A DNA stretch of 64,000 bases from Anaerolineales bacterium UBA2181 (GCA_002328075.1 DCVT01000015.1:75971-139970); one strand, 5' to 3'. Positions 15,373 to 63,121 are shown, counted from the stretch's first letter. Made by a program: numbers and translations. Notes: generated by a model not told the origin, from the sequence alone.

Positions 15373-15373
15373 C

Positions 15374-32991: not shown

Positions 32992-33004
32992 GCCTTGCCA
33001 TATT

Positions 33005-39988: not shown

Positions 39989-40170
39989 AAGACGCCGAGT
40001 AACGTATTGGTGATGGAAGGCGGCCATCGCGTGCAGCTGGCGATTGCACTCATGCTGCGGCGCTGGGACTGCCGAGCGGTGACAGCGCGGGACGGTATGC
40101 ACGGTCTGGTAGATTGCTGCCAGAGCGGGTGGAGCCGGTGCTGACGGACGTCATGATGGTGATGCTGACC
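39989..40170 (+). pseudogene. Frameshifted receiver (REC)-domain relic running into the start of the next gene
   Basis: Frame A reads KTPSNVLVMEGGHRVQLAIALMLRRWDCRAVTARDGMHGLVD and then stops at 40142-44. Frame +1 continues as LLPERVEPVLTDVMMV. Together these give the beta1-alpha1-beta2-alpha2-beta3 pattern of a response-regulator N-terminus up to the phospho-acceptor Asp. The usual acidic DD pair is replaced by EG. Confidence 0.35.
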
Positions 40171-45302: not shown

Positions 45303-45346
45303 CGTTCATGTCATCCAGCGTTCAATGACGCGCCACCGCACCGGGC

Positions 45347-46651
45347 TCACGGGCGTGGTGGAGGTTCAGCGGTCTTGGGTTCGGGCGGCGAAGCGGTTGG
45401 GGGGGAACCGCTGTCAGGCGTGTCCGTGATTTGTACCGTAGGCACCGGCGTCCGTGTGCGGGTGCTGGTAGGTCGCGGCGTGGGTGTGTTAGTCAGGGTA
45501 AACGTGGGCAGGCGGGTGGGTGTTGCCAGCTCGCCCCCCTCGTCGGTGGGCGCGGCGGTGGGCGATGGCGTGCGCGATGGCGGCGGGGTCTCGGTAGCGA
45601 GTGGGGTGGTGGTGAACGTCGGGGACACTGCCAGCGCGGTCGTTTCCATGGAGGGGGCGCTGGTCACGGCGGCAGCCGTCGCCAACACAGTGGGCGTGGC
45701 CTTTGATTTGAACGGACCGGCCGTGAACGCCCAAACCCCGCCGACCGCTGCCAGCCCCAGGACGGCCAGAGCGGCGATGCCCACCCAAAGCCCAGCGGAA
45801 CCGCCACGGTGCGCAACTGCAGAGGGCTTTTTCCCGGGGATCTGCATCAACACCACCGTGATGTTGTCATAACCGCCGCGCTTGCGTGCCAGCAGAACCA
45901 GTTCCTCGGCCGCCCTTTGTGGCGTTCGATTCTTCACCATGGTATCCAGAATGTCCGGGTCGGATACCATATCCGAGAGACCGTCCGAGCAGAGCAGCAC
46001 TGTGTCCCCGGGCTCGAGCAGCAGACCTTGGTTCTGCTCGGACGGTGGAGCTGCCCCATTCCCCGGGAGACGAAGCCTAAGATCTACCTCCATTTCGGAC
46101 TGGATGCCCATGTACCGTTTGATGACGTTGCGGTTTGGGTGTGACCGGGCTTGCTGGGGGGTCAATCGGCCGGCGTCAATGGCTTCCTGGGCCCAGGTAT
46201 GGTCAATGGTCAGCTGAAATAGCTGGTCGTTTCGCATCAGATAGGCCCGGCTGTCCCCCACGTTCGCCAAATAGAGACGCTGGTTCATAATCACCGCCGA
46301 CGTCATGGTCGTGCCCATGCCGCGAAAGCGAGCGTCCTGCTGGCCTTCCCGCACCACCTCGGCGTTGGCGGTCAGGTAAGCCTCCTTGAGATGACGCTGG
46401 AAATTGGGAGTGGTCACGGTGAGCAGGTATCCCTTGACCACGTCGACCGCCATACGACTGGCGCGTTCCCCGGCCTGATGACCGCCAATTCCATCAGCCA
46501 CAATCCCCACGAACACCTCGGTCCCGTCCTTTTCGGACAGGGTGTAGGCCGAGAAATCAGACCAATCCTCGTTGTTCTTGCCGGTCTCTCCCTGGTGGGT
46601 ATCCATCCCGATTAGGATTGCTTTGAGGTCGTTGCTGGCTATCGGCTTCAT
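45347..46651 (-). CDS. PP2C-family Ser/Thr phosphatase with TM helix and PT-rich tail
   Basis: NEDW, VADGIGGHQAGERAS, GTTMT, ANVGDSRAY, CSDGLSD and GGYDNITVV motifs. The TM is LWVGIAALAVLGLAAVGGVWAF. Confidence 0.85.
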   Translation of the reverse strand: MKPIASNDLKAILIGMDTHQGETGKNNEDWSDFSAYTLSEKDGTEVFVGIVADGIGGHQAGERASRMAVDVVKGYLLTVTTPNFQRHLKEAYLTANAEVVREGQQDARFRGMGTTMTSAVIMNQRLYLANVGDSRAYLMRNDQLFQLTIDHTWAQEAIDAGRLTPQQARSHPNRNVIKRYMGIQSEMEVDLRLRLPGNGAAPPSEQNQGLLLEPGDTVLLCSDGLSDMVSDPDILDTMVKNRTPQRAAEELVLLARKRGGYDNITVVLMQIPGKKPSAVAHRGGSAGLWVGIAALAVLGLAAVGGVWAFTAGPFKSKATPTVLATAAAVTSAPSMETTALAVSPTFTTTPLATETPPPSRTPSPTAAPTDEGGELATPTRLPTFTLTNTPTPRPTSTRTRTPVPTVQITDTPDSGSPPTASPPEPKTAEPPPRP

Positions 46652-46687
46652 ACTTTGCTCCTGCGTTGGTCTGATCTTTATGCCGTG

Positions 46688-48004
46688 TTAGCTGGTAGGT
46701 GTGGCGGTCGGCAGCGGCCGGGGTGTTGGGCTGGGCTTGGTGGGCACCGGTGTTGGTGTCCAAGGGCGCGGCGTGGCGGTGGCTGTGGCCCGCCACGTTG
46801 GCGATGCCATGCGGGTGGGTTCCGGTGGTTGTGTCATTTGCGTGTGGGTCGGGGGCAAGGTCCAGGGCGTTGTTGGGTTGGGGGCCGACTCGGTAGCGGT
46901 AACGACCCGCGTGACAACGACCTCTGGTGCAGGATCGCCGACTCCGGGTAGTGAACCGGTCGCCAGGTTCCAACCCAGCAATCCCAGGAAACCCAAGGTG
47001 GTAAACGCGCTGATTGCCCACGGGACGGCACTCCCGCCCCTTTTACTAGTTTTCTCCAGGGTCGCGGGAGTAAAAATCCGTGGGGCCGGCACCAACTGCT
47101 CCAACCGAAAGACAAACTCCTCAGCTGACGGGCGTCGAATCGGCGCCTTGCTCAGCGCGTCCATGATCAGTTGCTCGACCTCGGGTGGGATTTCCGGGTT
47201 GTGCTTGCGCGGCAAGGTGGGTTCGCTGTTCAGGATGGCGGTGGTGATGTGGTCCTGAGATTTCCCCTCGAATGGGCGCCGCCCGGTGAGCATCTGGTAC
47301 AGCACGGCCGCCAGGCCGTAGACGTCTCCGGCCGATTGATCCGTGACTCGCTCTGGCGGCAGCTGTCCGCGCACGAGCAGCAGCCGCTCGGGCGACATGT
47401 AATAGATGGAGCCTGCTTGCAAACCGATCCGCTCCAATTTGGCCGCAATGCCGAAATCCACCAGGACCGGTTCGATTCGCTGGTTGGCCTGAACCGCAGA
47501 GCGAAACAGCACGTTATCCGGCTTGACATCTCGATGGGCAATTCCTTTGCCGTGCATGTGAGCCAGCGCCAATCCCATTTGACAGGCGATTTCCGCGGCC
47601 TCGTCAACGGATAGCCGACCGTTCTTCCGGAGCAAAGACTGCAATGATCCGCCTTCCAGGTACTCCATGACAAAGAACCAAGGCGAACCAGGCAAGCTGG
47701 TATCGCGCGCGATGACCGGATTGGCCCGCCGACCGCCCATGGGTATGGGATAAATGCGGACAATGTTGGGGTGGAGCAGCTGTTTGAGAACCTGCACCTC
47801 ATTGTTGATGGCGTCGCTGAAGAAACGCTCTTCTTCGGGATTGCGGGCACCAGCGCGCATTACCTTCAGCGCCATGTAGACTAAGGGTCGGTTAGGCAGC
47901 TGGACGGCGGCTTTGCACACCACTGCCATGCCCCCTTGGCCGGTCGGAAAGGTCTCGACTACTGTGTAGGGACCTACCTGGCTACCGGGCGTCAAGTCGG
48001 TCAA
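46688..48004 (-). CDS. Hanks-type Ser/Thr protein kinase (catalytically competent), membrane-anchored
   Basis: GQGGMAVV, ALKVM, HRDVKPDN, DFGIA and SPE. It has a TM helix then a PT-rich extracytoplasmic tail. A TTG start follows GGAGGAGGTG. Confidence 0.85.
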   Translation of the reverse strand: MTDLTPGSQVGPYTVVETFPTGQGGMAVVCKAAVQLPNRPLVYMALKVMRAGARNPEEERFFSDAINNEVQVLKQLLHPNIVRIYPIPMGGRRANPVIARDTSLPGSPWFFVMEYLEGGSLQSLLRKNGRLSVDEAAEIACQMGLALAHMHGKGIAHRDVKPDNVLFRSAVQANQRIEPVLVDFGIAAKLERIGLQAGSIYYMSPERLLLVRGQLPPERVTDQSAGDVYGLAAVLYQMLTGRRPFEGKSQDHITTAILNSEPTLPRKHNPEIPPEVEQLIMDALSKAPIRRPSAEEFVFRLEQLVPAPRIFTPATLEKTSKRGGSAVPWAISAFTTLGFLGLLGWNLATGSLPGVGDPAPEVVVTRVVTATESAPNPTTPWTLPPTHTQMTQPPEPTRMASPTWRATATATPRPWTPTPVPTKPSPTPRPLPTATPTS

Positions 48005-48045
48005 AATGCCACCTCCTCCAGCAGCGTCGTACGCGGAATCGGCAC

Positions 48046-50337
48046 CTAGTCAAAGTCCATTGGCACATAGGGCTGCGTGCTGATCTCGCCTCCGGCATCC
48101 TGGTCATCGATGGGCGGGGGTGGCGGGGGCGCCGTCGGCCGCACAGAACCTGGCGACACCATCGGTTGGGTCGACTCGAGATCAGGTTCAGGCTCAGCCG
48201 GTTCGTATGCCTCGGTGGCAAAGGGATCCACCGGTCGTTCTGCCGGCGCCGGTGTTGGCGTAGGTACACTCCGCGAGCCGGCAATGACGGTGGCCGTAGA
48301 GTCCTCCTGTTTGGTTTTTCCCGGAAAGATGGCCTGCATGGGAATCGTCTGGTCCAGGACCGATCCCTTGCCTTTGGCGGCCGGCATCGAGGATTTCAGC
48401 TTGAACTGCAGCCGGACCCGTCCCAAGTTGATGATGTCATCATGCTGCAGCCACTGTCCGTTGATCCCCACCTGTTCATAATTCACGTACGAGCCGCTGG
48501 TGCTCCCTTCGTCGTACATCATGAAACGCTCTCCCCCCTTGCGGTCCATCTCGTTGCTAATGCGGGCGTGGAGTCGCGAGACCGACCGATCGTTCAGCAC
48601 CACCTGGGCCAACTGCTCGTCTCGACCGAGCCGTATGTTTTCACCAACCAGTTCGATGGGCGGTCTGGTCGGATCGTCCCCTTCCAGGACGACCAGATAT
48701 GCCTTGACATCCTGTGTCGCCCGGGCTTTGTCCCGATCCACGAAAAACGGCTCGGTGATCTCTTTGACCTTGTTTACTACCGAGCTAATTACCTTGGGAG
48801 GGCGGCGTACCAGGATGACCACCAAGACAAGCGCCAGCAGCGACACAACCAGGGCCCCTAGCGACCATACCTCTGGGTTGCAGCGCACAATTCCCGTGAT
48901 ACCACTGTATTGGTCTTCACACGCTACCACCACCACGGGCGTGGGGGTGGGCATGGGGGTGGGGGTCGGGGTGGGAACCGGGGTCGGTGTGATGACGGTG
49001 ATGCTCAACCGGAGTTCGTCGCTCTCCGATTGCATTCCCTGAACGTCCCGTACCCGGACACGGATCGAATGGGACCCGGCCTGCAGCGAGGTCAGGTTCC
49101 AGATAATCTGGCTGCAGGGTGGGACGCAGCTTTCGCTAGCCACCACTCCGTCCACCAGGAGATCCACCTTGTCCACCTGCCGTGGATAGCCGTCGGGCCA
49201 ATTCACCTCGAAATCAACCACCTGCGTTCGCGGTTCTATGTCCTGGACCGGCATCCTGGGATCATCGGTCCGACGGGTGATTTGGGTGCCCGGTGTCGGC
49301 TGGAGGATGATCACCTGCGGTGGCCTGACGTTGATGCTGAAACCAACCCGCGCCGACTTGCCCCCGGTTTCGAGGAGCAACTCGTGGCTGCCGGCGGAAT
49401 AGAGCTTGGAAGTGTAAGTGAGTTGGTACTGCTCGCGCTGGCTGGTGAGCCTTGCGTACAGCGGTTCCAGCGAAACGCCTATCAGCTCGTCGAGGGGGGT
49501 GGGTTTGCGGCCCTCGGACGCCAACCGGTAGTGGTCTCCGTACGTGTCCAGCGACAGCCGTTTCATGTTGGACTCTGCCTGACCGCCCCAATTGTTGGCA
49601 GGACCAAAGATGATCGTATAGATCGGCACGTTCTGCGTGTTGGCAGTCCGGACAATGTCGGCTACCTCGCGGTCGCTGATCACGTCGATGCCGTCCGAGA
49701 TGACGATCACAGCCTGGAAGAGTGTGGACCGGGCCGCCTGCAGCTGGGCCAGTGCCCGCGAGACCAGGTCGTTCAGCGGCGTAGCACTGATACCCTGAGG
49801 TATCTCGTATAAATAGGTGCCGTCGCGCACCGTATTCCTGAACGGCGTAAAGGCGGCCGTATCCTCAGGAAGCGGAGCCACCTTCTGAATCTCGGTGCTG
49901 GAAAGTGGCGCCAAAACGGCGACCTGATCCATACCTTCGGCCATGTAGGATTCGGCAAAGGTGTAGACAACCTGTTTGGCTTCCTCCAACCGTGTATAGC
50001 CCGTGGCTCCGTTCTGGCGAGTGTCAAGACTGGCGTCCAAGACGAACACCAGTTGGACGCCCACCTGCACATCGTCCACGGTGACCGGTAGGGCATCGCC
50101 ATCCTCGCTCAACGCGAAATCCGCGGCGGTGAGCCCTGGCACGCGGCCGCGAGCGTCATCCGACACAATGGCGCGGACCGCAACGGTTGGGAAGGCAGAG
50201 TAATCCACCTTGCCTTGAGGCACGGCCACTTCAAAGACCTGCCCCTGAGCGCCCAACCATGTGGCGGGCGCTGCTCCAAGCAACAGGGCGATAACAAGCA
50301 CAATGCGCCAGGAAGTGATCACCGATTGTCTGTTCAT
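48046..50337 (-). CDS. Signal peptide - VWA - Ig-like - TM - FHA protein
   Basis: The N-terminal signal is followed by a VWA-like core (VFVLDASLDT ... VIVISDGID). The TM is VWSLGALVVSLLALVLVVILV. The C-terminal FHA reads IRLGRD..VSRLHARIS..GSTSGSYVN. Confidence 0.7.
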   Translation of the reverse strand: MNRQSVITSWRIVLVIALLLGAAPATWLGAQGQVFEVAVPQGKVDYSAFPTVAVRAIVSDDARGRVPGLTAADFALSEDGDALPVTVDDVQVGVQLVFVLDASLDTRQNGATGYTRLEEAKQVVYTFAESYMAEGMDQVAVLAPLSSTEIQKVAPLPEDTAAFTPFRNTVRDGTYLYEIPQGISATPLNDLVSRALAQLQAARSTLFQAVIVISDGIDVISDREVADIVRTANTQNVPIYTIIFGPANNWGGQAESNMKRLSLDTYGDHYRLASEGRKPTPLDELIGVSLEPLYARLTSQREQYQLTYTSKLYSAGSHELLLETGGKSARVGFSINVRPPQVIILQPTPGTQITRRTDDPRMPVQDIEPRTQVVDFEVNWPDGYPRQVDKVDLLVDGVVASESCVPPCSQIIWNLTSLQAGSHSIRVRVRDVQGMQSESDELRLSITVITPTPVPTPTPTPMPTPTPVVVVACEDQYSGITGIVRCNPEVWSLGALVVSLLALVLVVILVRRPPKVISSVVNKVKEITEPFFVDRDKARATQDVKAYLVVLEGDDPTRPPIELVGENIRLGRDEQLAQVVLNDRSVSRLHARISNEMDRKGGERFMMYDEGSTSGSYVNYEQVGINGQWLQHDDIINLGRVRLQFKLKSSMPAAKGKGSVLDQTIPMQAIFPGKTKQEDSTATVIAGSRSVPTPTPAPAERPVDPFATEAYEPAEPEPDLESTQPMVSPGSVRPTAPPPPPPIDDQDAGGEISTQPYVPMDFD

Positions 50338-50348
50338 GCGTTTGCCCT

Positions 50349-51347
50349 CTATTGGTTCACTTTCGTATCATATGATACAGCCATCTGACCCAGATAACCC
50401 CAGGCCTTTTCGAATACGGGCCAGGCAAAATGGCGCGCCTGGCCGTACCACGGGTCGTGGACGTAGACTCCCTGCTCGTCGTAGCCAAAGACCGTGAAGG
50501 TGTGTTCACCCCGAACGGCGTTCACCCAGGTTCGGCCATCATCGGTGTACCAGCCGGTCAGCTCAACCGGTTCCATGTCAAACGGTGCCCAGACAATGAC
50601 CGGATGATCTGCCTGAATCTGTCGCCGTAACCATGCTGCGCCTTGTCCATTGAATGCCCGAACGTGGAGCCCCAGTCTTTGGAGGCCGGCCGCCACAGGC
50701 TGGGCGTACACACCGTACCCCCGGGGATAGAGCTGGCGCGGCGGGTCGTCAAAACTCGTACCGACAAAACCGACATTGGGGTTGCCATTGGGGTCGTGAC
50801 CGACGGCCAGGAACACCGTTTGCCAGGACAGGTTGAGCCCGTAGAACTGGGCAAGGTCAGCGGCCGACGTGAACTCGCAGTTAAGGTTTCGCTCCTGTTT
50901 GCTGAAAGGCACGCCGATGATCTGGTGCACACCGGCCGTTCGCGCAATTGGGGTGGGCGTTTTCAGGTCCTCGAGTGTGGATTGGTTGCTCGAGCCCGGT
51001 GCGGCACTCGTGGCCGGCGACGGCAGATCCGTGGGCGCAACCGCCGGCGGCAACGCGACCGATTCAGGTTCGGGCAGTAAAGGCACAACGAGGTTGGTTG
51101 ATGACCCCGATTGGTTGTCTGACCCGGTACGGTGGACCACCGTTCCAGCATTTCGTGCAAGACTGCCTTCCCTGGAGATCCATCGCTCACCCAGGTAAGC
51201 AAAGAGCAAAAGACAGGCGGCTATCAGAGCGGCCAGCAGCAGTCTATATGTCAGGTTGAGCATATCTGGCTGCCGGACGGCGGATAACAGCGGGGGCAGC
51301 CTTGCCGGGCGTGGTGACGAGCCCGAATTGCCGGCCACCTGCCTCAC
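50349..51347 (-). CDS. Membrane-anchored papain-fold C39-like peptidase domain protein
   Basis: An N-terminal TM is followed by QERNLNCEFTSAADLAQFYG (Cys) and GEHTFTVFGYD (His) contexts. The GTG start at 51347 overlaps the upstream stop as GTGA, and ATG 51263 is an alternative. Confidence 0.5.
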   Translation of the reverse strand: MRQVAGNSGSSPRPARLPPLLSAVRQPDMLNLTYRLLLAALIAACLLLFAYLGERWISREGSLARNAGTVVHRTGSDNQSGSSTNLVVPLLPEPESVALPPAVAPTDLPSPATSAAPGSSNQSTLEDLKTPTPIARTAGVHQIIGVPFSKQERNLNCEFTSAADLAQFYGLNLSWQTVFLAVGHDPNGNPNVGFVGTSFDDPPRQLYPRGYGVYAQPVAAGLQRLGLHVRAFNGQGAAWLRRQIQADHPVIVWAPFDMEPVELTGWYTDDGRTWVNAVRGEHTFTVFGYDEQGVYVHDPWYGQARHFAWPVFEKAWGYLGQMAVSYDTKVNQ

Positions 51348-52300
51348 GGTGCCACCTCTAGGCGGGCGTCATCCCAGTACGTATCCTGGTTCCGGCGCGG
51401 TTGATTGGGAGAGGACCAGGCGAAAACGGTCACATAGTCGCTCTCAGAAGTGGCTTCCACGCTAAAGGCCGACCAGCCAGAGGTGGGACTTTGGCGAGCT
51501 GACCACACGATGGAGTCAGCCTTGGGGTTACTTCCGCCCAACGGGTCGATTCCGATACGCATGCCCATATCGGCCGGGTTACACGACTGGTCACTCGGGC
51601 AATCGCCAGAACCGTCGTGTGACCAGGCCTGGCCGTAGATGGTGAACCGTAACTTGACCCCCGGGGCCACCTGTACTCGCTGCATGACGCCGGCGGTGTA
51701 GGTGCCAAAGGTCTTGAAATACTGCTGGGCGCGCTCGCCGCTGTGCACCCGGCTCAGATGGGGCGCCTCGGCCGGCTTGAACTCGGGGGCAAAGTCCGCG
51801 TCCGACCACTGGACATACCATGGAATCCAGCCTTCGGGCACATTGAACTCGGTTCGGCCGGCATAGGGCCCGTATTGGCCTTCGAAACCTGGGTTGGTGA
51901 GCAGATTGACGCCGACTGGAACCACCGAGCCGGGCTTTTGCGTTGCAGCCGGCGGGCCGGTCGGCGAGGGCGATGGCGGACTGGTTGGAATCACTGCCCG
52001 ACGGGTGGGAGTGATCTTGGGGGTGGGTACCGCAGTGGGCGTGGGCGGTCTGGTGGGCAGCGTGGTGGCGGTTGGAAGCGGTGGTGGTGTCTCTGAAGGC
52101 AATGCCGCCGTCACCAGTGGCTCGGCTGTCGGCGGATCGCCCGACACCAGGCAGCCGACACTAGAGATCACCAGGAGCGCGCACAACCCGAGCCACGAGC
52201 GTACGTGCCCACGAGTGCGGCGGGTCCTGTCCAGTGTTCCTGGTACCGATCGATCAGCGATCCTACGCGTCGGACACGACATGCGCCAAGCTCCGCTCAT
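51344..52300 (-). CDS. Secreted protein with PT-rich linker and CBM4/9-like domain
   Basis: It has a TM/signal segment (LGLCALLVISSVGCLV), a PT-rich region and NLLTNPGFEGQY...VHSGERAQQYF, typical of carbohydrate-binding jelly-rolls. Confidence 0.4.
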   Translation of the reverse strand: MSGAWRMSCPTRRIADRSVPGTLDRTRRTRGHVRSWLGLCALLVISSVGCLVSGDPPTAEPLVTAALPSETPPPLPTATTLPTRPPTPTAVPTPKITPTRRAVIPTSPPSPSPTGPPAATQKPGSVVPVGVNLLTNPGFEGQYGPYAGRTEFNVPEGWIPWYVQWSDADFAPEFKPAEAPHLSRVHSGERAQQYFKTFGTYTAGVMQRVQVAPGVKLRFTIYGQAWSHDGSGDCPSDQSCNPADMGMRIGIDPLGGSNPKADSIVWSARQSPTSGWSAFSVEATSESDYVTVFAWSSPNQPRRNQDTYWDDARLEVAP

Positions 52301-52350
52301 TCACCTGTATTTTCCCCGTTTTGTCTGCTGTGTCAAGCAAAGTCCGATCC

Positions 52351-55300: not shown

Positions 55301-55794
55301 TCCAGCAGCCGGCCGATGCCGACCTCCTTGAGGGTGGCCTGGTAAGCCTGGTCATGGCGGACAAGCTGCACGTTCTTTGGGCGCATCGCAAGGTGCAACA
55401 ATTGATGACCATGAACGTACTGCAGAGCATCGGCGATCTGGCGCCCCAATTGGACGACGTCAGCCCAGGGCAGTGGACCGTCGGTGTGTTCCAGCACCTG
55501 TCTTAACGTGGGACCAGAGGCATAGGCCATCATGAGAAAGAGCTGACCGTGCCATGTTCCCTGGCCGATGGTTCGGACAATCCCCGGATGGTCGAGCTTG
55601 GTCAACCGCGTGGCCAGTTCCTGAAATTGAGCCAGGAACTCCTTCTGCTGGCTCAGAGTGTTGGCAAACACCCGGAAAGCTACGTCAGTGCGCTCCACAG
55701 GATGGAAGGCACGATAGACGACCCCCAGGTTGTCTTCGTCAAGCCGCTCGCGGATGCGGTATCCCTCGATGAGTTGGCCTCTCCAATCCTCCAT
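52351..55794 (-). CDS. Pseudokinase - FHA - Ig-like - TM - TSP3-type Ca-binding repeats - GH-A-like barrel (1147 aa)
   Basis: It has a kinase fold with degenerate catalytic motifs (VAFRVF for VAIK, HLAMRPKN for HRDLKPxN, EVG for DFG). The FHA reads LVIGRD..VSRHHAEL..GSANGTF. The TM is WLPVLLMVLCCALAGLAAAV. Asp-rich repeats follow (DSDGDGLSNADE, DTDADGLSDGDE, DNDTDNDT). The C-terminus has VWNEMN and LTELGY. Confidence 0.7.
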   Translation of the reverse strand: MEDWRGQLIEGYRIRERLDEDNLGVVYRAFHPVERTDVAFRVFANTLSQQKEFLAQFQELATRLTKLDHPGIVRTIGQGTWHGQLFLMMAYASGPTLRQVLEHTDGPLPWADVVQLGRQIADALQYVHGHQLLHLAMRPKNVQLVRHDQAYQATLKEVGIGRLLESSFQANSDLQTREALTFLSPEQCVASPATVKTDVYSAGVVLYELSTGQPPFQVSSVEQAVAMHTKAVPKNPSQHRIDTPAELANLVLAMIAKDPRKRPSVEEVAEQLQNLRRQLKLPHGSGWEALAGAVSLAQPQADKSDAALSSPDLSRRPTGTLELHISRPGESTRIVPLQIPQRLVIGRDAKCDLPLPDSRVSRHHAELLVQPSDVVIQDLGSANGTFIGDARLLPRQPETLSPGSAIRIPPFELRLESVGQPEPVPAAAAEQAAVASPGPASTVNVRMEDGRVRATPGSTPGVLQVNLQNMTSIVDHFSVRVFGVPPDWVTCPVRPVQLNPRQQAPITLTFHPPPEPTTTAGPHPIQLLIHSRERKDVVEKVDAVLVVEPFARFDAELAPADVETRTRGALEVTITNQGNAPSEYTVAAKDSAQALMCQVEPERVELAPAASQAVKLRVAPRKLNWLGGTKMMPLIVTVTSSTAPPRVLPAQFRLRAWLPSWLPVLLMVLCCALAGLAAAVGPGLYDRAFPSPTPTASGTPSQTPVSTATPTPSLTPTSTPNATATWGALDSDGDGLSNADEINIYRTDPYKYDTDADGLSDGDEVYKYKTDPLDNDTDNDTWLDGEEVALSLQLFGEGPILCPNPNNPDSDFDGIVDRLDPDPCNLPTATPSVTPTTTPVPNFGLGGQIRGNDHLGEMRQAGMTWVKKQIRYGPGDSALNLAEDINTWHTQGFKVLLSVVGHREDLAGGSGYFDQYAAFVGGLAELQVEAIEVWNEMNIDREWPTGQISPNQYVDLLAKASSQIRSRGVGTLVISGAPAPTGVDDGVQVWSDKRYVEGMASAGADRFIDCVGIHYNEGIIPPDETSGDPRSEHYTRYFWGMVDTYWNAFGGKKPLCLTELGYLSPEGYGQLPSNFAWAQDTSVYEQAEWLGQAVSLAAASGKVRMAIIWNVDFEVFGDDPQAGYAIIRKDGSCPACAILKASVPRNP

Positions 55795-55806
55795 GCAACC
55801 TGCCTT

Positions 55807-58281
55807 TCACTGACCGAATGTGAACCGCTGAAAGCTAGCCGGTTGCTCCCAGTTCTGGGACCAGTCCACGGCGGCAGCCAGTATCACATACTCATTGGGC
55901 TGCAAACCCCACTCGTCACCCTTTTGATCGGTTTCATTGCTGCTGCACCGCACCATATCGCTTTCGGTGAGTCGAAGCGACAGGTCTCCGTACACGTTCC
56001 AGGTCTGTCCGCAGTCCAGGCTGTAATGGATCTCGCGAACTCCTTGTCGGCTTTCGTCCTGGCCCTGCAACTCCACGGTGACGGTCCCGATGTATACGCC
56101 GGTCGTCTGTACGCCGAACAGACGGATGGTCGTCTTGGGTGGGATGATGTCTTCAATCGGCCGGCCTGTGACGGTGTATTTGCCGGGCAGGTTCAGGAAC
56201 ACTTCGACGTATGGCCGGCCGCTCTGGTCAGCCAAAACGCGCGATTCGGGCACCACGACCCAGTTTCCTAACCCCGTGGCCGAATCGATCTCGTATCGGT
56301 GCACCTTGATCGATGCCAAATCCACCTTGCTGACATTCGCCCGGGTCAACCACACGGGAACCCGAGTGGGATTGGCGGGATCGGCAGTGGTAAAGATAAA
56401 GGTGGCCAGGCTGACAAGGCCCTGGAACGGAGTCGGGTCCAACTGGCGGCGGCTCTGGACCTGAGTGCACCCACCTCCTTCTTCAGCCGGGTCCCACGTG
56501 TGTATCCACAGGTATTCACTGCCGCCGCACCCTATTGCGTCCATGGGATCAACCTGCATCTCGAGGCTGGGGCTAAAACCGTAGGGGTCGATGGCTTCGG
56601 CCAATTCGAACCGCCCGTTGTTGTTGCAGTCACGCCGGACCTCGAAATGGAGGTGGTGCCCTGTGCTATTCCCGGTGTTTCCCATGGTGCCGATGCGTTC
56701 TCCCTGCTGGATCCTGGTTCCGGGTGCCAGGGCGAGCATCCGGTCAAAGTGGGCATCCGGCTCCAGGTGTAGATAGCTGGTCTGGTATTTGCCGCGGTCG
56801 ACGCGGTCGTGGGTGAGCAGCACATAGTTGTTGCCCAGACTGTCAGTTCCGGCCCCGGCAAAAACGGCGTCGGCCACCGCCAAGAGGGCTGTCTCGATGG
56901 GCGTGTTGACCCTTTGCCAACCATAGACGGAAAAGTCATACCCTGGATGACCGCTGTAGAAATCGCCGCTCTGGCCCGGGTTGGACGTCCGATCCAGGCT
57001 GATGGAGCCGTCAAAGAGGACCATGGTGTCGCGGGCCTGAAGCGAGTCGATGACGTCAGCCTCGCCGCGGTAGAGGGGGAACTGGTGGTCAAAAAAGCTG
57101 TTGATGCGCCCGCCAGCTGCCGTCCTTTGGGATGCAGCGCGGAACTGCTCGGCCGTGCCGAATCCCTGGTTCTTGCCGTCGTAAGGAAAGGGCAACTCCA
57201 TCCAACCGCCCGACTGCGGGGTGCAACCGGGCAGCGGCGCGTAGGTAGGGGTGGGTGAGGGCAGCATGACGCCAGTGCTGGTAGAGACAGTCGGGCGCGG
57301 GGTCTGAGTGGCCACGTCAACGGCAGTCGGAGGAACCGGAGTCATGGTGGCCTCCACGGGTTCGGTGGGCGAGATCTGCAGCTCGGCCACCGGCGTCGGC
57401 GTGGGCCGCAAGAATACCTGATACAGGCCGGCGCTGATGCCCACCAATAAACAAAGACCTCCAAATACCATGGAGACCGGCAGCCACGGAAGGTGGCGCA
57501 GCCATTCGAGCCAGACCGCGCCGCCCGGCACCGAAGTTTTCTCGCCGGTCTCTGCCGTGACGACCTGGTCGCCCAAAGGCGCTGGTGCTGCCTCTGCCCA
57601 CTGGATCAGCGCGAACGGCCCCAGCTGAAGGTGGGTACCTTCCGGCCAAACCTGTGCCGTGTTGGCCGGCAGCGCCTCGTTGCCTATTCGGGTTGTATCG
57701 CGCTGGCTCAGGTCGGTTACCCACAACTGGTTTCCCTTCTGGTGTACGCGACACTGCTGGAGCGACACACCAGGATCGTCCAGCACCATATCGCATTTCG
57801 AATCCCGGCCTATCAGGATCGGTTGGTCACCTACCTTCACCGTCGAGGGCCGCCCGTGACCACAGGCAATCCTCCATGTGCGACTGGCGGTGAGAGGATG
57901 ACGTTCCACAACCTCCGGCTTGGCGGCAGAAGCGGCCACCGGTGGCTCAGGGCGGCGCTGCCGCGAAGCGGATTCCTCCAACTGGAGGGAAAACGGGCCA
58001 ATTCGCAGCTCCTGGTCTGGCATCCACCGGGCGCGCTGTCCCGGCTCCAACCGGTTGGAACCTAGGTAGGTGCCGTTGTGGCTTCCCAAGTCGGTCACCG
58101 TCACACGGCCGTCCGCGGTTTCCATCTGGCAGTGGCGTCGAGAGACCTTGGGGTCGTCAAGCTGAAGGTCGCACGACGGGTCGCGCCCAATTACCTGGAC
58201 ACTGACCTCCAGATTCACCCTGCGTTCGGGTTGGTCGTTATGGCGGACCTTGAGAGCTACTTGACGTGAGGACGCATCCAT
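55807..58281 (-). CDS. FHA - FHA(degenerate) - TM - M23 peptidase - Ig-like protein
   Basis: FHA1 reads VIGRD..VSRRHCQM..GSHNGTY. FHA2 reads LIGRD..VSLQQCRV..SQRDTT. The TM is WLPVSMVFGGLCLLVGISAGL. The M23 motifs are HPGYDF, TGNSTGHHLHFEV. Confidence 0.75.
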   Translation of the reverse strand: MDASSRQVALKVRHNDQPERRVNLEVSVQVIGRDPSCDLQLDDPKVSRRHCQMETADGRVTVTDLGSHNGTYLGSNRLEPGQRARWMPDQELRIGPFSLQLEESASRQRRPEPPVAASAAKPEVVERHPLTASRTWRIACGHGRPSTVKVGDQPILIGRDSKCDMVLDDPGVSLQQCRVHQKGNQLWVTDLSQRDTTRIGNEALPANTAQVWPEGTHLQLGPFALIQWAEAAPAPLGDQVVTAETGEKTSVPGGAVWLEWLRHLPWLPVSMVFGGLCLLVGISAGLYQVFLRPTPTPVAELQISPTEPVEATMTPVPPTAVDVATQTPRPTVSTSTGVMLPSPTPTYAPLPGCTPQSGGWMELPFPYDGKNQGFGTAEQFRAASQRTAAGGRINSFFDHQFPLYRGEADVIDSLQARDTMVLFDGSISLDRTSNPGQSGDFYSGHPGYDFSVYGWQRVNTPIETALLAVADAVFAGAGTDSLGNNYVLLTHDRVDRGKYQTSYLHLEPDAHFDRMLALAPGTRIQQGERIGTMGNTGNSTGHHLHFEVRRDCNNNGRFELAEAIDPYGFSPSLEMQVDPMDAIGCGGSEYLWIHTWDPAEEGGGCTQVQSRRQLDPTPFQGLVSLATFIFTTADPANPTRVPVWLTRANVSKVDLASIKVHRYEIDSATGLGNWVVVPESRVLADQSGRPYVEVFLNLPGKYTVTGRPIEDIIPPKTTIRLFGVQTTGVYIGTVTVELQGQDESRQGVREIHYSLDCGQTWNVYGDLSLRLTESDMVRCSSNETDQKGDEWGLQPNEYVILAAAVDWSQNWEQPASFQRFTFGQ

Positions 58282-58363
58282 TGTATTGTTCTACTATCAT
58301 CTAGTTCGCGCGTCATATCTTTATCAGTTCCACTTTTGCGGAACTATGGGAGACGAGGTGATC

Positions 58364-60295
58364 ATGAAGCGCATCTGCACACACTATTATATTCCCTTTT
58401 TGCTTCTCGCGCTGCTATTAGCCCCAGTTTCGGCCGGTGCTCAGGATTCACCGTCGCGAATCCAGATCTCGTGGTTGGATACCAGTCATTTTCCGCAGAT
58501 CGAAGTCCATCTGATCGCTTCCAAACCCACGGGTGGCCGATTCCAGGGTTTGTTTGTCAACTCGCTTCAGGTCACCGAAAACGGAACTGCACGCGATCCA
58601 TCCATGTACGATGCTCCTCGGGGCACCGCGATTACCTTTCTCATTGACGCGGATCAGAAGGCCCAAGCAGAATGGGACCAGATTCGGCAGGGAATCGAGA
58701 GTTACGTCTCGGCTACCGAGAGCTGGATGGATGAGGATTTGGATGTGACCACCCTTATTGTGGCTAACGGCGGCGATTGGCGCGTCCTTGTGCAGGACAC
58801 ACCTTTTCGGAACGATGTGCTGAATGCCTTCATCACTGACACCGGTGCGTATTATCAGCCAACTTTCCATCCCGTTACTCCGCTCTATGACCTGGCATAC
58901 CAGGCGCTACAGGGGATGCCTGCCAAGACCCCGACTCCGGGCATGTACCGGGCGCTCGTGCTGCTGTCCAGCGGGGATCCCGGCGCCAGCACGTCCAGCC
59001 CGGAAGCGGTGGTGTCACTGGCCAAGGAGATGGGCGTTCCGCTGTTCGCGGTGCTTGTCGGCGACAGTGCGGCTGGCGAGACCATCATGCAGCAGTTGGC
59101 CAGCAACAGCGGAGGTCAGTTCCTGCGACTTGATCCGTCCCAAACCCTGGTTCCGCTCTGGCAAGCGCTGAGCAGCCATCACGAGCAGTATGTGATCAGC
59201 TATCGCTCGGGAATCGTGTCCTCCGGAGCGCACAATGTCAAGGTTCTGGTGAGCGAAGGAGTCCAGGACACTCAGGCATTCGACATTACCATTCTCAACC
59301 CGGGTGTGGAGATCACGTTGCCCGAAGCCAACGCCACCATCCTGCGCAAACCGACTGAGTCCAGCGCCGACGTGAGCGGCTTTGAACCAAGTATCCAGGC
59401 GGTAAAATACCTGTGGACCTGGCCGGATGGTTTCGAGCGCAAGGTAAACCAGGTTCAGCTGCGCGTCAATGGCGCTGTCCAACTACAACTCGACCTCACC
59501 GCGACCGATGACCGTAGCCTGACGTGGGACATTTCGACGCTCCCATCGGGTCGGTATTCTATCCGGGTAGAGGTGACCGACGAACTGGGTCTCACCGGTG
59601 TGAGTGCCGAGATACCGGTGACGATACAACTGCAAACATCGGAACCTACGGTGGCACCAGAGCCGACCGCCCAACCTACTCCCGGGCCAAGCTTCGTGGA
59701 CAATGCCCTCAAGACTGCCAAGAAGAACCTGCCCTGGATTGGTGCCGGTGGTCTGTCCCTGTCGGCTCTCTTGGTCACCTTTTTCATGTTCAAGCGGCGG
59801 CTGGCCTTCGCGGGAAAGACCCCAGTGGGTTTCCTTAGGAGCCTGCCCTTTCTCAGGCCGCTGGACCGCGCACTCCGGACGATCGAGCGGGTAACGGGAC
59901 CCATTGGCGTACCCAAACCCAAGAAACCTGATGTCAAGGCACCCGCACGCGCCAAATCGAGCGGTGCGGCGGTTGAGAAAACGCCAGCGGCACCGGCCGC
60001 GCGCGTGGAAGTGACGCAAGGGCCCTCGCTGCCGGGTCCGGTGGAGATCATCGAGGAGACCAGCTTCGGACGTTCGGCCGAGCAAGCCGGAGTGGCGCTG
60101 GTGGACGCGACGGTCTCCCGGCGTCATGCGAGCATCCTTCCCGAATTCGGCGGCAAATACCGGATTTACAATCATAGTCCTCAGCAGACCTGGGTTAACG
60201 AACAACGAGTTCCGGAACACGGGCTGTTGCTGGAGGACGGCGACGAAATCCGGATGGGCAAGGTCAAGATGAAGTTTGTTCATCGGCGAAGGTAG
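58364..60295 (+). CDS. Signal peptide - VWA-like - Ig-like - TM - FHA protein (paralogous architecture to 48046..50337)
   Basis: The signal is MKRICTHYYIPFLLLALLLAPVSAGA. The VWA-like core has a degenerate MIDAS (ITFLIDADQK ... LVLLSSGD). The TM is GAGGLSLSALLVTFFMF. The C-terminal FHA reads SFGRS..VSRRHASI. A GAGGTG RBS precedes ATG 58364. Confidence 0.65.
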   Translation: MKRICTHYYIPFLLLALLLAPVSAGAQDSPSRIQISWLDTSHFPQIEVHLIASKPTGGRFQGLFVNSLQVTENGTARDPSMYDAPRGTAITFLIDADQKAQAEWDQIRQGIESYVSATESWMDEDLDVTTLIVANGGDWRVLVQDTPFRNDVLNAFITDTGAYYQPTFHPVTPLYDLAYQALQGMPAKTPTPGMYRALVLLSSGDPGASTSSPEAVVSLAKEMGVPLFAVLVGDSAAGETIMQQLASNSGGQFLRLDPSQTLVPLWQALSSHHEQYVISYRSGIVSSGAHNVKVLVSEGVQDTQAFDITILNPGVEITLPEANATILRKPTESSADVSGFEPSIQAVKYLWTWPDGFERKVNQVQLRVNGAVQLQLDLTATDDRSLTWDISTLPSGRYSIRVEVTDELGLTGVSAEIPVTIQLQTSEPTVAPEPTAQPTPGPSFVDNALKTAKKNLPWIGAGGLSLSALLVTFFMFKRRLAFAGKTPVGFLRSLPFLRPLDRALRTIERVTGPIGVPKPKKPDVKAPARAKSSGAAVEKTPAAPAARVEVTQGPSLPGPVEIIEETSFGRSAEQAGVALVDATVSRRHASILPEFGGKYRIYNHSPQQTWVNEQRVPEHGLLLEDGDEIRMGKVKMKFVHRRR

Positions 60296-60324
60296 CCAAC
60301 CAAAGCCGGCGGCCCCCGAGCTAC

Positions 60325-61941
60325 CTATTCGCTCAACGAGATGATGTAGGGCCCGATTCTGATGTCAGTGCCCGCAGCCCATGGCTCCAATTGCTGGGCT
60401 TCCAGGCGTCGGTCCTCCATTACCGTGCCATTGGTGGTGCCCAGATCTTTGACTTTGACCTGTTTACCGTCCCAAAAGATGGCGCAGTGTCGTTTGGAGA
60501 CCCCCGGATCGGCGATGACCATGTCGCAATCGGGCAGCCGGCCGATGTAGACCGGTTTTGCACCGAGGGCGACGACGGACGGCTTTCCGTCATCACAGCG
60601 GATGGTCGGAACCTGGAGATCTGGCTCCGGTTCAGGAGGCGGAGCGGTCGGCGATGGTTGGGCAGGCATTTGCCCCCAGTACAGCGTAAACAATCCCAAA
60701 CGCAAGGGGACACCCTTGGGCCAGGTCGTTGGGACGTCGGGCCCCAATTCCTCCTCGGCCAGGAAGGTCTTGTTGGTGCTGTGCAGGTCCCGCACTTTCA
60801 TCTCAGAGTTTATCCGCCGAATCTCGCAGTGGCGTTTGGAGATTTGGCGGTCTTCTGAATCAAGCAACAGGTCGGCCGGCGGCAGACGACCGGCGACGAC
60901 CACATCGCTTTTCATGGCAAAGTGGTCGACCGGCCGATCCTGATAAAAAACCTGAATCAGGACTGATGCCTGCTCGGATGACCATCCCTCCGCTTCTGAA
61001 GGGGTCACCACGGCGCCGGCTTGCACCTGGAAACCCTCCCCGGTCGGCACCGGGGTAAGGGTTGGTGACAGTTTGGCCAATTGGTCGGCAACAGCGCCAG
61101 CAGATGGTGGCCGTTGGGTTCGATCCTTGGCCAACATGGCCAGAACAAGTCTGTCGATGCTGGCAGGAAGGCCAGCCAGGTGAGAGCTGGGCGGCGGCGG
61201 CGATTGGCTCCCATGGTAGTAGACGGCTTGAGCCAACGTAGATACCGGAAAAGGACGTTGGCCGGTGAGTACCTCGTACAGCATGACACCCAGCGAATAG
61301 ATGTCCGAGGACTCGTTGAGCGACTCACCACGGCACTGCTCCGGCGACATGTAGTGCGGGGTACCGATCCTTTGCGTCGTGTGCACCGAGACGCCGGGAG
61401 CCACGCGCAGACGCGCCAGGCCGAAATCGCTGATCACAGGATGATAAGGGCATCCGAATTCGCCGGTCCCAGGGGTCGTGCCGGTTTCCAGGAGAATGTT
61501 GTCTGGTTTGAGGTCCAGATGAAGCACTCCCTGTGAATGTGCATAGTCCAGCGCCCGGCATACCTGTTCCATGATGGCCACCCCGATGGATGTTGGTAGG
61601 CCAAACGGCGAATCACGCAATAGGGTGCGCATGGTGGGCCCGGTGACCAGGTCCATCATCAAGAAGGTAACGCCGGTAGCGTCGTGGCGACCAAAATTGC
61701 GGACGCGCACGATATTGGGATGCTTCAGCCGGGCTACTGTCTGTGCTTCGCGTTTGAACTGCGCGTAGAAACCCTCCCGCTCCGCCAGCTCTGGACGCAT
61801 CACCTTGACGGCCACGGTCAACTCGAGATCCGGATGCTGGGCCCGGTAGACCATGCCCATGCCACCCTCTCCCAGCTTTTCCTGGATGACGTAGTTGAGA
61901 AAGTTGGCGCCGATCAGCGCGTCCCTGTTGGAAGGGGGCAT
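60325..61941 (-). CDS. Cytoplasmic non-RD Ser/Thr kinase with two C-terminal FHA domains
   Basis: GEGGMGMV, VAVKVM, HLDLKPDN (Leu in place of the RD Arg), DFGLA and SPEQ. FHA1 reads VAGRL..ISKRHCEI..HSTNKTF. FHA2 reads YIGRL..VSKRHCAI..GTTNGTV. It starts 10 nt after the stop of the FHA::gpI gene. Confidence 0.8.
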   Translation of the reverse strand: MPPSNRDALIGANFLNYVIQEKLGEGGMGMVYRAQHPDLELTVAVKVMRPELAEREGFYAQFKREAQTVARLKHPNIVRVRNFGRHDATGVTFLMMDLVTGPTMRTLLRDSPFGLPTSIGVAIMEQVCRALDYAHSQGVLHLDLKPDNILLETGTTPGTGEFGCPYHPVISDFGLARLRVAPGVSVHTTQRIGTPHYMSPEQCRGESLNESSDIYSLGVMLYEVLTGQRPFPVSTLAQAVYYHGSQSPPPPSSHLAGLPASIDRLVLAMLAKDRTQRPPSAGAVADQLAKLSPTLTPVPTGEGFQVQAGAVVTPSEAEGWSSEQASVLIQVFYQDRPVDHFAMKSDVVVAGRLPPADLLLDSEDRQISKRHCEIRRINSEMKVRDLHSTNKTFLAEEELGPDVPTTWPKGVPLRLGLFTLYWGQMPAQPSPTAPPPEPEPDLQVPTIRCDDGKPSVVALGAKPVYIGRLPDCDMVIADPGVSKRHCAIFWDGKQVKVKDLGTTNGTVMEDRRLEAQQLEPWAAGTDIRIGPYIISLSE

Positions 61942-61951
61942 ACAAGAGCTT

Positions 61952-63121
61952 TCAGGCTGTGGGTGGTTTATCTTTGTCTGCTGGTGGCTGGTCGGCCGTC
62001 GGATCCACGGGTTGGCTGGACACGTCTGGAGGCGGCGCAGCTACCTCGGCAGCCGCGTCCGGCGCGGGTTTATCACCTGCAGCTGGAGCGGTTCCCTTTT
62101 CTGGTTTGGGTTTCTTGGGTTTGGCGGCGGGTGGGGGGACCGGCGGCGGCTCTGGCGGTTCCGCGTGCTCGATCACCAATTCATAGGCTGTCTGCGCTGG
62201 CTTTTCGTTCTGGATGATCTGGTGCACCAGCTCTTCGTCTACCTGTTGTTCTGATGGAACCCGGAGGGTGACACGGAAGGTGTGTGGACGCTCCAACACG
62301 TCTTCGATCACCGGTGTCACGGCGGCGTATATCTCCAAATAGCGGCTCAAACCATGACGGGTGCCTCGCCAGCGATAGAGCTCACTGGCACTGCGAATCA
62401 GGTCCCTCCGATGTGCCTCTGGCCAGTTTTCGTTCAAGGTAAGGTCCAGCCAGGCGGCAAACCAGGGCAGTGTGTCGGCCGGTTGCGTGCGGGGATCCAA
62501 TATCAGAGGAAGGTGGTCAGCAATTTGCTCGATCGGCGCCAGGATGGACTCGAAGATGAGTAGGAAGCGATCCATCAGGCTGTCCTGAGAGAAGAACGAG
62601 GGCAAATGCTGCAGGTAACTACTGCGCGGGGGCAGACTCCAGCCGGTTACCGCACCCTCCGCAACGGGTCGAACCGGCTCAGCAAAGGTGAGGACGAACT
62701 CGTCATCCTCCGCAGGTGCCACGGGCTGGGGACCATAGTACACCAGGAGGTACTCCCCAATCCGGATGGTATCGCCCTCAATCAGCTGCCGCGGTTCGTT
62801 TGGCGCCAGTCTCTCATCGTTCAGGAAGGTGCCATTCTGGCTCCTCAAGTCCTCTATCCAGCAGCCCTCCAACCTACACAAGAGCCGACAGTGCCTCCGC
62901 GAGATGCCCTGGTCGGGAAGGACCAGCTCGTTGCCCATCTCCCGTCCAAACCGGAACTCCTCGCGGTTGAGCCGTACGGTCCGGACTGCCTGCCCAGTCT
63001 TTCGTCGCAGGGCCAGAGAACCAAAATCCTGCGGGAAGGCTGGCAAAGAACTCTCCCCCGACGCTGGGGATGCCATCCACCCTTCCTGACCAACAGGTGC
63101 CCTGGGATTGTGATCGCTCAT
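61952..63121 (-). CDS. FHA domain fused to phage P2 gpI / Afp12-like baseplate wedge protein, with Pro/Ala/Lys-rich C-terminal tail
   Basis: The N-terminal FHA reads FRFGRE..ISRRHCRL..LRSQNGTF. The central part is gpI-like (DPRTQPADTLPWFAAWLDLTLNENWPEAHRRDLIRSASELYRWRGTRHGLSRYLE). It overlaps the baseplate J gene as ATGA at 63118-63121. Confidence 0.7.
   Translation of the reverse strand: MSDHNPRAPVGQEGWMASPASGESSLPAFPQDFGSLALRRKTGQAVRTVRLNREEFRFGREMGNELVLPDQGISRRHCRLLCRLEGCWIEDLRSQNGTFLNDERLAPNEPRQLIEGDTIRIGEYLLVYYGPQPVAPAEDDEFVLTFAEPVRPVAEGAVTGWSLPPRSSYLQHLPSFFSQDSLMDRFLLIFESILAPIEQIADHLPLILDPRTQPADTLPWFAAWLDLTLNENWPEAHRRDLIRSASELYRWRGTRHGLSRYLEIYAAVTPVIEDVLERPHTFRVTLRVPSEQQVDEELVHQIIQNEKPAQTAYELVIEHAEPPEPPPVPPPAAKPKKPKPEKGTAPAAGDKPAPDAAAEVAAPPPDVSSQPVDPTADQPPADKDKPPTA

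Follow-up and report, generated by a model that had tools for sequence, protein, structure and literature searches.

The DNA analyzed here, a stretch of 64,000 nt from Anaerolineales bacterium UBA2181 (GCA_002328075.1 DCVT01000015.1:75971-139970) referred to as the window, carries at positions 45347-61941 nine genes that adjoin the baseplate genes of a contractile injection system (CIS). Together with the neighbouring gene for the baseplate wedge protein gpI (Cis12), these encode eight FHA domains, three Hanks kinase domains and one PP2C phosphatase (Pfam). On balance, the locus probably serves to dock a type IId CIS at the membrane and to control firing, via phosphothreonine recognition. The link of the cluster to the CIS is supported by the fusion of an FHA domain to Cis12, by a kinase gene within the CIS operon, by the family-level association of gpI with membrane proteins carrying tandem Ig domains ahead of a transmembrane (TM) helix, termed Ig2-TM proteins, and by conserved synteny. 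An earlier note, made from the sequence of the window, had suggested that the cluster acts for the neighbouring contractile apparatus, and these four lines of evidence support such a link.

Genes were inventoried from six-frame open reading frames (ORFs) and Pfam matches. The same gene set also encodes two VWA domains, an M23 peptidase, a C39-like peptidase and TSP3 repeats. Both the domain counts of the earlier note (seven FHA domains plus one on gpI, three kinase domains, one PP2C) and its VWA, M23, TSP3 and C39-like modules were recovered by Pfam at the same positions. Read from the CIS operon downstream, the genes and sites of the locus are:

63118..64000, minus strand: 3' part of the baseplate J (Cis11) gene (Pfam Baseplate_J); the full gene, of 655 aa, continues past the window end.
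61952..63121, minus strand: fusion of an N-terminal FHA domain (E 6.8e-19) to the baseplate wedge protein Cis12 (gpI; Tail_P2_I, E 7e-18).
60325..61941, minus strand: cytoplasmic non-RD Ser/Thr kinase (Pkinase, E 2.2e-46; VAVK, HLD and DFG motifs) with two FHA domains and no TM helix.
58364..60295, plus strand, divergent from 58281: 643-aa protein with signal peptide, VWA, Ig, TM helix (484-502, then KRR) and cytoplasmic FHA domain (Pfam VWA, Ig and FHA).
55807..58281, minus strand: two FHA domains, TM helix (264-282), M23 peptidase (HxxxD and HxH motifs) and a C-terminal domain (Pfam).
52351..55794, minus strand: 1147-aa protein with pseudokinase, FHA domain, two ASH-type Ig domains, TM helix, TSP3 repeats and a putative GH-A-like barrel (Pfam Pkinase, FHA and TSP3_bac).
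52309..52336, minus strand: promoter-like site TTGACA-16-GAAAAT (10 of 12 consensus matches), in the 50 nt that separate the CIS-specific genes from the portable cassette.
51344..52300, minus strand: N-terminally anchored extracytoplasmic protein (TM 36-54, five K+R before it) with a Pro/Thr linker and a 190-aa domain; no Pfam family.
50349..51347, minus strand: N-terminally anchored C39-like cysteine peptidase (Peptidase_C39_2, E 3.6e-20), the start of which overlaps the upstream stop (GTGA).
48046..50337, minus strand: signal peptide, VWA, Ig, TM helix (492-510, then RRPPK) and cytoplasmic FHA domain (Pfam); core of the portable cassette.
46688..48004, minus strand: active-type RD Ser/Thr kinase of 438 aa (Pkinase, E 1.3e-41; ALK, HRD and DFG motifs) with a weak TM helix (326-344) and a Pro/Thr-rich tail.
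45347..46651, minus strand: PP2C phosphatase (E 1.5e-19) with TM helix (288-306) and Pro/Thr-rich tail, the only phosphatase of the locus.
42711..45302, minus strand: anchored or secreted protein with five to six Ig-like repeats of 100 aa (Big_13, E 4.7e-18) and a C-terminal domain; last gene of the minus-strand run.

For the neighbouring apparatus, CIS genes were tabulated from locus L001, which covers 10 kb past the window end (JGI contig 3300001580 Draft_10000082, which includes the window and ends about 0.9 kb further). There, FHA-gpI is preceded in a one-strand run by two gp19-type tube genes, DUF6760, a gene for an 1100-aa protein, CIS_tube/LysM, VgrG, gp25 and baseplate J. The core baseplate and spike set (Cis7 LysM tube initiator, Cis8 VgrG, Cis9 gp25, Cis11 gpJ and Cis12 gpI) is contained in one operon, and the same set was found in 80 related loci. 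Full-length baseplate J (residues 1-654) matched Streptomyces Cis11 (PDB 9gtp) with an E value of 2.1e-153, as against 1e-8 for 7aeb, 7e-8 for 7b5h and 6e-3 for Pvc11, with AlgoCIS-, tCIS- and PVC-type proteins all at 1e-8 or weaker; the gpI part matched 9gtp_E with an E value of 5.6e-13. In 9gtp, the chain matched by baseplate J is present in 12 copies and the 190-aa chain matched by gpI in 6, which is the 2:1 stoichiometry published for Cis11 and Cis12 of the cytoplasmic CIS of Streptomyces coelicolor (PMC12237407). Judged by these baseplate matches, the apparatus is predicted to be a type IId (cytoplasmic-type) CIS. The related gpI loci come from Ardenticatenales, Anaerolineales, Thermoflexales, Herpetosiphonaceae and other Chloroflexota, the CIS of which have been placed in lineage IId (PMC12998442). 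By Pfam, no tail-fibre family was seen among the genes after gpI, which encode kinase, FHA and membrane proteins, and no Tss family in any scanned protein, including those of the TssJ/L/M membrane complex; the apparatus is of eCIS type, with DUF6760, CIS_tube and Tail_P2_I. A PAAR gene lies between VgrG and gp25 in L088 (7276-7569) and is missing from that position in L001 (7509-7555).

All eight FHA matches of the window fall within 48400-62980, with none elsewhere (FHA model scan). The Gly-Arg motif is present in all eight, Ser-x-x-His in seven and S-x-N in five; the second FHA domain of 55807-58281 is degenerate, having lost its SxxH motif. Fusions of FHA to gpI form about 75 protein clusters, all named ones from Chloroflexota, and residues G59, R60, S74, H77, N96 and T98 of FHA-gpI are conserved in 12-14 of 14 aligned sequences. 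The public gene call for FHA-gpI (61952-63046, 364 aa) is 25 codons shorter at its start than the 389-aa ORF listed above.

The CIS operon ends with the kinase-FHA-FHA gene at 60325-61941, located 10 nt after gpI and outside the 58281-to-42711 unit. A kinase follows gpI directly in the window and in L002, L011, L024, L041, L085 and L088. In a kinase-domain alignment with PknB as reference, the proteins at 46688-48004 (ALK, HRD, DFG) and 60325-61941 (VAVK, HLD, DFG) retain their catalytic residues. The kinase domain of 52351-55794 has Lys replaced by Arg, HRD by HLA and DFG by EVG, with a degenerate Gly loop, and the HRD Asp is absent in four of four orthologues; because of these losses, it is classed as a conserved pseudokinase. 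The three Hanks kinase domains of the earlier note are thus all present, with two predicted to be active and the third a predicted pseudokinase.

For the Ig2-TM family, 80 gpI loci from species-representative genomes were scanned with profile models of the window's own domains, the Ig2 segment being defined as residues 420-660 of the 1147-aa protein, between its FHA domain and TM helix. Of the Chloroflexota CIS loci, 57 extend 3 kb or more past gpI on its downstream side, and 44 of these contain the segment; its median distance from gpI is 1.7 kb, and in the window 6 kb. The 10 kb preceding gpI gave no match, nor did unrelated control loci totalling 709 kb. The usual layout of the family consists of zero to four FHA domains, one or two Ig2 copies, a TM helix some 31 residues later and a variable C-terminus; FHA domains are carried by 31 of the 59 members. 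Kinase, FHA, Ig2 and TM helix are fused in the window and in L041, and distributed over two proteins (kinase-FHA and Ig2-TM) in L085 and L011. K and R residues are enriched on the Ig side of the TM helix (44 versus 4 proteins, p 7e-8), which indicates that the Ig2 unit is cytoplasmic. The AF2 model of the Ig2 segment (pLDDT 86) shows two beta-sandwiches, for which Foldseek returned ASH/SPD-2/Hydin Ig domains; Pfam matches were FixG_C, Cep192_D3 and ASH. Among ten family ectodomains examined, three carry SH3_3, one a beta-helix and one Calx-beta, and five are without a recognised domain. We regard the 52351-55794 protein as a candidate membrane receptor for the baseplate.

Further relatives of the Ig2-TM segment were sought in two ways. 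A homologue search gave only 7 matches, probably because words of the Pro/Thr linker crowded out other candidates. An exhaustive profile search gave 8693 representatives with E values down from 1e-3, of which 2679 reached at least 1e-30; its profile was dominated by proteins of about 430 aa like Streptomyces P0152, the CIS link of which is only partly supported. P0152 itself (L086) is encoded beside sheath, eCIS_core, AAA and Pvc16_N genes. Its identity with CisA was considered and set aside, as it has structured Ig domains before the TM helix and a C-terminal domain unlike that in the published description of CisA. The genes for three such relatives of about 430 aa (L086, L169, L171) are each paired divergently with a GerE/LuxR regulator; one of them lies beside CIS genes, one beside a gene for an Annexin/Ntox4 toxin-like protein of more than 2900 aa and one beside a Tricorn/PD40/VWA protein gene.

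Membrane topology was predicted from hydropathy and flanking charges. Each membrane protein has one TM helix, with FHA, kinase and PP2C domains predicted on the cytoplasmic side and VWA, M23, TSP3/barrel and C39 on the outer side, which agrees with the arrangement in the earlier note of FHA and kinase domains inside and enzymes outside. Both VWA proteins, which are paralogues of each other, have an N-terminal signal-like segment and a K/R-rich flank after the TM helix (five K+R after TM 492-510), and their FHA domains are therefore placed inside. The proteins that begin with FHA or kinase domains have one TM helix and no signal peptide, which places M23 and TSP3/barrel outside. As outer parts of the FHA-bearing proteins, M23, TSP3 with the GH-A-like barrel, and VWA are modules directed at wall or glycan. 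For the weak TM helix of the 46688-48004 kinase, KD is 1.53 and the N-flank holds three K+R, versus none. The start of the plus-strand VWA-FHA gene was set to the ATG at 58364 and not 58286, with GAGG 7 nt upstream.

Intergenic gaps along the minus-strand run measure 11-50 nt, and the GTGA overlap at 51347-51344 was confirmed by direct reading of the sequence, as the earlier note had it. Its proposal of one operon from 58281 to 42711 agrees with this spacing, from which operon structure was read; the promoter-like site at 52336-52309, a consensus match, lies inside the run. In the promoter/terminator scan, terminator-like sites were at chance level (16 found, 15.4 expected) and all intragenic.

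The order of the cluster is conserved as gpI, kinase-FHA-FHA, VWA-FHA (on the other strand), FHA-FHA-M23, pseudokinase-FHA-Ig2-TM-barrel, the anchored protein without a Pfam family, VWA-FHA, kinase and PP2C. Besides the window, three contigs or more share this synteny, with identities of 55-68%: L002 (Ardenticatenales, 65%) keeps the order up to its contig end, L082 (a 148-kb contig) has a VWA-FHA protein that is 56% identical, and L087 and L088 belong to a single 36-kb contig showing both the CIS and the full cluster. A fourth contig (29,394 bp) appears to hold both FHA-gpI and a VWA-FHA homologue. Orthologues of the 51344-52300 protein are encoded in L082 and L087, and the C-terminal domain of the 42711-45302 protein is conserved after PP2C in L082. 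The C39 gene is absent from L082 and L087 and present in a cassette without CIS genes (L093). In L082, the cluster is followed by a gene for an FHA-GAF-guanylate/adenylate cyclase protein (16426-17958), which suggests a further FHA-linked output there.

The locus is a composite of a CIS-specific half (52351-63121) and a portable half (42711-52300). For the VWA-Ig-TM-FHA protein, a word-indexed search returned 29 homologues, mostly from the syntenic clade. A metagenome scan was run with alignment A4, as alignment A3 (both paralogues and distant sequences) held no stretch that was conserved enough, and gave only distant relatives. About 30 of these are full-length VWA-FHA proteins at 23-38% identity, with the gene pattern FHA, PP2C, VWA-FHA, kinase, PP2C. 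No CIS core gene or Ig2 segment was found within 10 kb of these roughly 30 cassettes (L089-L127), and Pfam analysis of one locus confirmed its content. PP2C follows the kinase in L082, L084 and L087 and in the CIS-free cassettes. L084 (9510-16782) holds a 31%-identical VWA-FHA homologue in a block of kinase-FHA, VWA-FHA, kinase and PP2C genes without CIS genes. This block is followed immediately by Tad/type IV pilus-like genes that encode a two-component system, a prepilin peptidase, a T2SSE-type ATPase, a VWA protein and T2SSF. Since the cassette recurs without CIS genes, we interpret 42711-52300 as a portable signalling cassette recruited here, and such cassettes may serve different envelope machines. 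The earlier note had asked whether the cluster is conserved together with CIS genes in related genomes, and had counted widespread homologous clusters without such genes as refuting the link. The whole gene order is conserved with the CIS in the syntenic contigs; the VWA-FHA/kinase/PP2C part occurs without it in these distant loci, which goes in part against the link.

The outer domains were compared against Pfam, PDB and structural models. For the barrel of 52351-55794, Pfam gave GH113 with an E value of 0.006 and the paralogous barrel in 40114-42537 gave GH5 with 1.5e-4; NE and TELG motifs are present, and a low-confidence model (pLDDT 46) has eight alternating strand/helix units, with GH1, GH5 and GH79 as top Foldseek matches (E about 2e-3). 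These results are consistent with one another, and the GH-A-like identity named in the earlier note may be kept as a weak assignment. Its CBM-like secreted protein, encoded at 51344-52300, found no match for its C-terminal domain in Pfam or PDB, and the label was dropped; the two domains pooled for a model were not significantly similar (E 0.013, off-register), and the pooled model was weak. Two further outer proteins are encoded nearby on the plus strand, a free-standing anchored M23 peptidase (38213-39433) and a beta-helix protein whose C-terminal barrel is the paralogue mentioned above (40114-42537); neither is conserved beside the cluster in L082.

In the proposed mechanism, the membrane kinase and the operon kinase would phosphorylate Thr residues on cytoplasmic tails or linkers of the membrane proteins, or each other, triggered by what the ectodomains sense in the envelope; these ectodomains would bind or cut envelope polymers, acting as sensors or anchors. 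The FHA domains would cross-link the phosphorylated proteins into a membrane patch, to which the FHA domain of Cis12 and the Ig2 unit would recruit the baseplate of a pre-assembled cytoplasmic CIS, whereby firing would be licensed. PP2C would erase the phosphorylation and so reverse recruitment. In this scheme, we infer the phosphorylation steps, their targets and the direction of firing; killing of the producer, as in Streptomyces, or delivery into a neighbour would each fit the data, and we leave the choice between them undecided.

The docking role so assigned would match the job proposed for CisA in Streptomyces, a bitopic membrane protein whose gene lies downstream of those for the baseplate and on which firing depends (PMC12237407). 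The system compared, CIS-Sc of S. coelicolor (type IId), resembles the present one in its baseplate (Cis11 E 2e-153, Cis12 E 6e-13 against 9gtp), in the absence of tail-fibre genes and in that the baseplate genes are followed immediately by one for a bitopic N-in/C-out membrane protein, at the position of CisA (PMC12237407), which is taken here by 52351-55794 and 55807-58281. The two systems differ in that CisA (SCO4242) is described as having a cytoplasmic part that is for the most part unstructured and an outer domain of substrate-binding-like type (PMC12237407), whereas here the cytoplasmic part consists of pseudokinase, FHA and two Ig domains and the outer part of TSP3 repeats and the GH-like barrel. 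Moreover, Streptomyces Cis12 (190 aa) is without FHA, and descriptions of the Streptomyces system mention neither kinases nor PP2C. Chloroflexota IId CIS are reported to lack a close homologue of cisA and may differ in mechanism (PMC12998442). In its logic, the proposed scheme would follow the threonine-phosphorylation pathway of the type VI secretion system, or T6SS (PpkA/TagE, PppA/TagG, Fha1/TagH), to which the earlier note had aptly compared the cluster: that pathway comprises a kinase, PP2C, FHA and a wall remodeller, and Fha binds phospho-TssL in Agrobacterium (PMC13584744). Shared with it are a TM Hanks kinase, PP2C and FHA proteins encoded together with a contractile apparatus, an associated wall-remodelling enzyme and, as a proposed likeness, the binding of FHA to a phosphorylated membrane component that triggers assembly or firing (PMC13584744). 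Unlike in T6SS, FHA is placed here on the baseplate wedge and on four membrane proteins rather than on one soluble scaffold, with eight FHA domains and a pseudokinase in total. 

A wider generalization is put forward more tentatively, and we hold it with less confidence than the reading of the locus itself. Chloroflexota IId CIS might possess a membrane receptor of their own, bitopic and with cytoplasmic FHA and tandem ASH-Ig domains; Cis12 would be FHA-tagged in many lineages, firing would be gated by Ser/Thr phosphorylation relayed from sensor or enzyme domains that face the envelope, and the window would represent the most elaborate version, equipped with kinases, a pseudokinase and a phosphatase of its own. 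Such an arrangement would be a functional counterpart of CisA and would amount to T6SS-like control by threonine phosphorylation, invented independently. IId CIS, FHA/kinase/PP2C signalling and bitopic CIS accessory proteins are known kinds; no description seems to exist of their combination, of the FHA-Cis12 fusion or of an Ig2-TM family encoded next to gpI. In full-text searches, the literature coverage of which was incomplete, FHA combined with CIS was found nowhere outside T6SS, and phosphothreonine control of a contractile apparatus only for T6SS.

Several observations weigh against a docking and firing-control module. The assignment to type IId was made from baseplate matches, with the Cis16 cap, the Cis15 AAA ATPase and the sheath lying beyond the DNA covered, and for this organism the locus is known from DNA alone. 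A CIS of the same lineage, from Roseiflexus, was imaged free in the cytoplasm (PMC12998442). A kinase was found within 10 kb in 3 of the 57 Chloroflexota CIS loci and PP2C in none, so that phospho-control encoded at the locus would be special to this clade. CIS genes occur within 10 kb for only one of the three actinobacterial Ig2-TM relatives examined. The VWA-FHA/kinase/PP2C half is CIS-free in about 30 distant loci, and its adjacency here could be inherited clade synteny; in addition, each CIS model was built from one sequence only, and a very distant CIS in the control loci could have escaped detection.

Among the alternatives, the one that survives best is a fixed, T6SS-like trans-envelope complex, in which the FHA membrane proteins form a permanent assembly base and M23, the GH-like barrel and C39 cut the wall for outward firing. 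The earlier note had favoured a complex of this kind; as written it is not supported, and we consider it unlikely. For a fixed complex speak the wall-active ectodomains tethered to FHA-carrying proteins, the wall-binding SH3_3 among family ectodomains, the occurrence of M23 with the same C-terminal domain as in 55807-58281 after gpI in five other loci (L018, L025, L031, L032, L076), and the fact that T6SS combine a dedicated wall remodeller with a phospho-regulated membrane complex (PMC13584744). The apparatus here is, however, of eCIS type IId, with no TssJ/L/M-like ring proteins seen by Pfam in the scanned proteins. The ectodomains vary greatly among loci, as would be expected of sensors or anchors more than of a conserved conduit, and both M23 and the barrel have free-standing secreted paralogues nearby. 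Those IId members that have been studied are free in the cytoplasm, including the Roseiflexus relatives, and kill their producer (PMC12237407, PMC12998442).

Ranking just below it, and likewise improbable in our judgement, is an independent envelope-signalling system for wall growth, adhesion or filament development that merely adjoins the CIS, with FHA-gpI and perhaps the first kinase as the only CIS-related parts. The distant cassettes without CIS genes, one of them beside the Tad-pilus-like genes, and the promoter-like site between the cassette and the CIS-specific genes favour this view, as does PADLOC, which gave only generic kinase matches. One type of vWA, kinase and PP2C cassette is reportedly known as the TerY-P triad, a term said to go back to Anantharaman and colleagues in 2012. 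Genes 45347-50337 form exactly such a triad with FHA, as in the cassettes exemplified by DRA0331-0334 of Deinococcus radiodurans, where a vWA/kinase/FHA/PP2C operon has been described (bioRxiv 10.64898/2026.01.23.701218). Here, by contrast, vWA and FHA share a bitopic protein predicted to expose vWA on the outer side and FHA in the cytoplasm, the cassette is conserved beside the CIS, and a second vWA-FHA copy stands among the CIS-specific genes: this paralogue of cassette type is inserted between the CIS operon and the gene for the 1147-aa protein, which itself lies in mid-run and is a member of the CIS-linked Ig2-TM family. In the syntenic contigs the gene order stays together with the CIS, homologues with at least 52% identity and retrieved context are all CIS-linked, and PP2C is the sole phosphatase available against the kinase of the CIS operon. 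Independence, which the earlier note had named as its alternative, holds for the portable half as far as ancestry is concerned.

That the FHA domains are phospho-independent structural modules, as in the YscD/PrgH-type inner ring of type III secretion systems (T3SS), with the kinases acting on other targets, is the least probable of the three and very doubtful: every FHA domain here is also overlapped by a Pfam Yop-YscD_cpl match, cytoplasmic FHA fold, single TM helix and outer domain are common to both, most FHA-bearing CIS loci are without a nearby kinase, and one domain is degenerate and two lack the Asn, but the Yop-YscD_cpl matches reflect the shared fold only, no T3SS genes are present, the phosphothreonine-binding residues are kept in most domains of the locus and conserved across the FHA-gpI family, and the same run encodes two kinases predicted to be active, the pseudokinase and PP2C. 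A role in anti-phage defence was set aside, as PADLOC gave only generic kinase-domain matches (PD-T4-6, mad6) and none for the FHA, VWA, M23, C39 and PP2C proteins.

Elsewhere in the window, the plus strand encodes two paralogous flavin/iron-sulfur oxidoreductases of about 1520 aa (1952-6523 and 8916-13481; Pyr_redox_2, Fer4_20, FAD-binding, Fer4), with a cyclic-nucleotide-binding histidine kinase (6953-8140) and a double-receiver response regulator (8110-8919) between them. An unusual, C1-metabolism-looking block on the same strand (15317-22380) contains MTHFR, an HdrD-like CCG/Fer4 protein, a metallophosphoesterase, a CBS-ACT protein and two tandem DHDPS-Fae (formaldehyde-activating enzyme) fusions. 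Genes for NAD salvage and regulation follow at 31459-35305 (plus strand), encoding NrtR (NUDIX and winged helix), an isochorismatase-family protein, NAD synthase and a 454-aa protein with a QRPTase N-terminal domain.

Of the factors by which cytoplasmic CIS find the membrane and are triggered to fire, only CisA is known, in Streptomyces. The favoured reading, a phosphothreonine-dependent docking module for a type IId CIS, offers testable candidates in the FHA domain on the baseplate wedge, the FHA-Ig-TM family beside gpI and, in this clade, the kinases that would set the signal and the phosphatase that would remove it. If it is true, T6SS-like logic would operate in a phage-tail-like system of monoderm-type filamentous bacteria, as a case of convergent regulation, and CIS firing would be tied to sensing of the envelope and, possibly, to the regulated death of cells in multicellular filaments.

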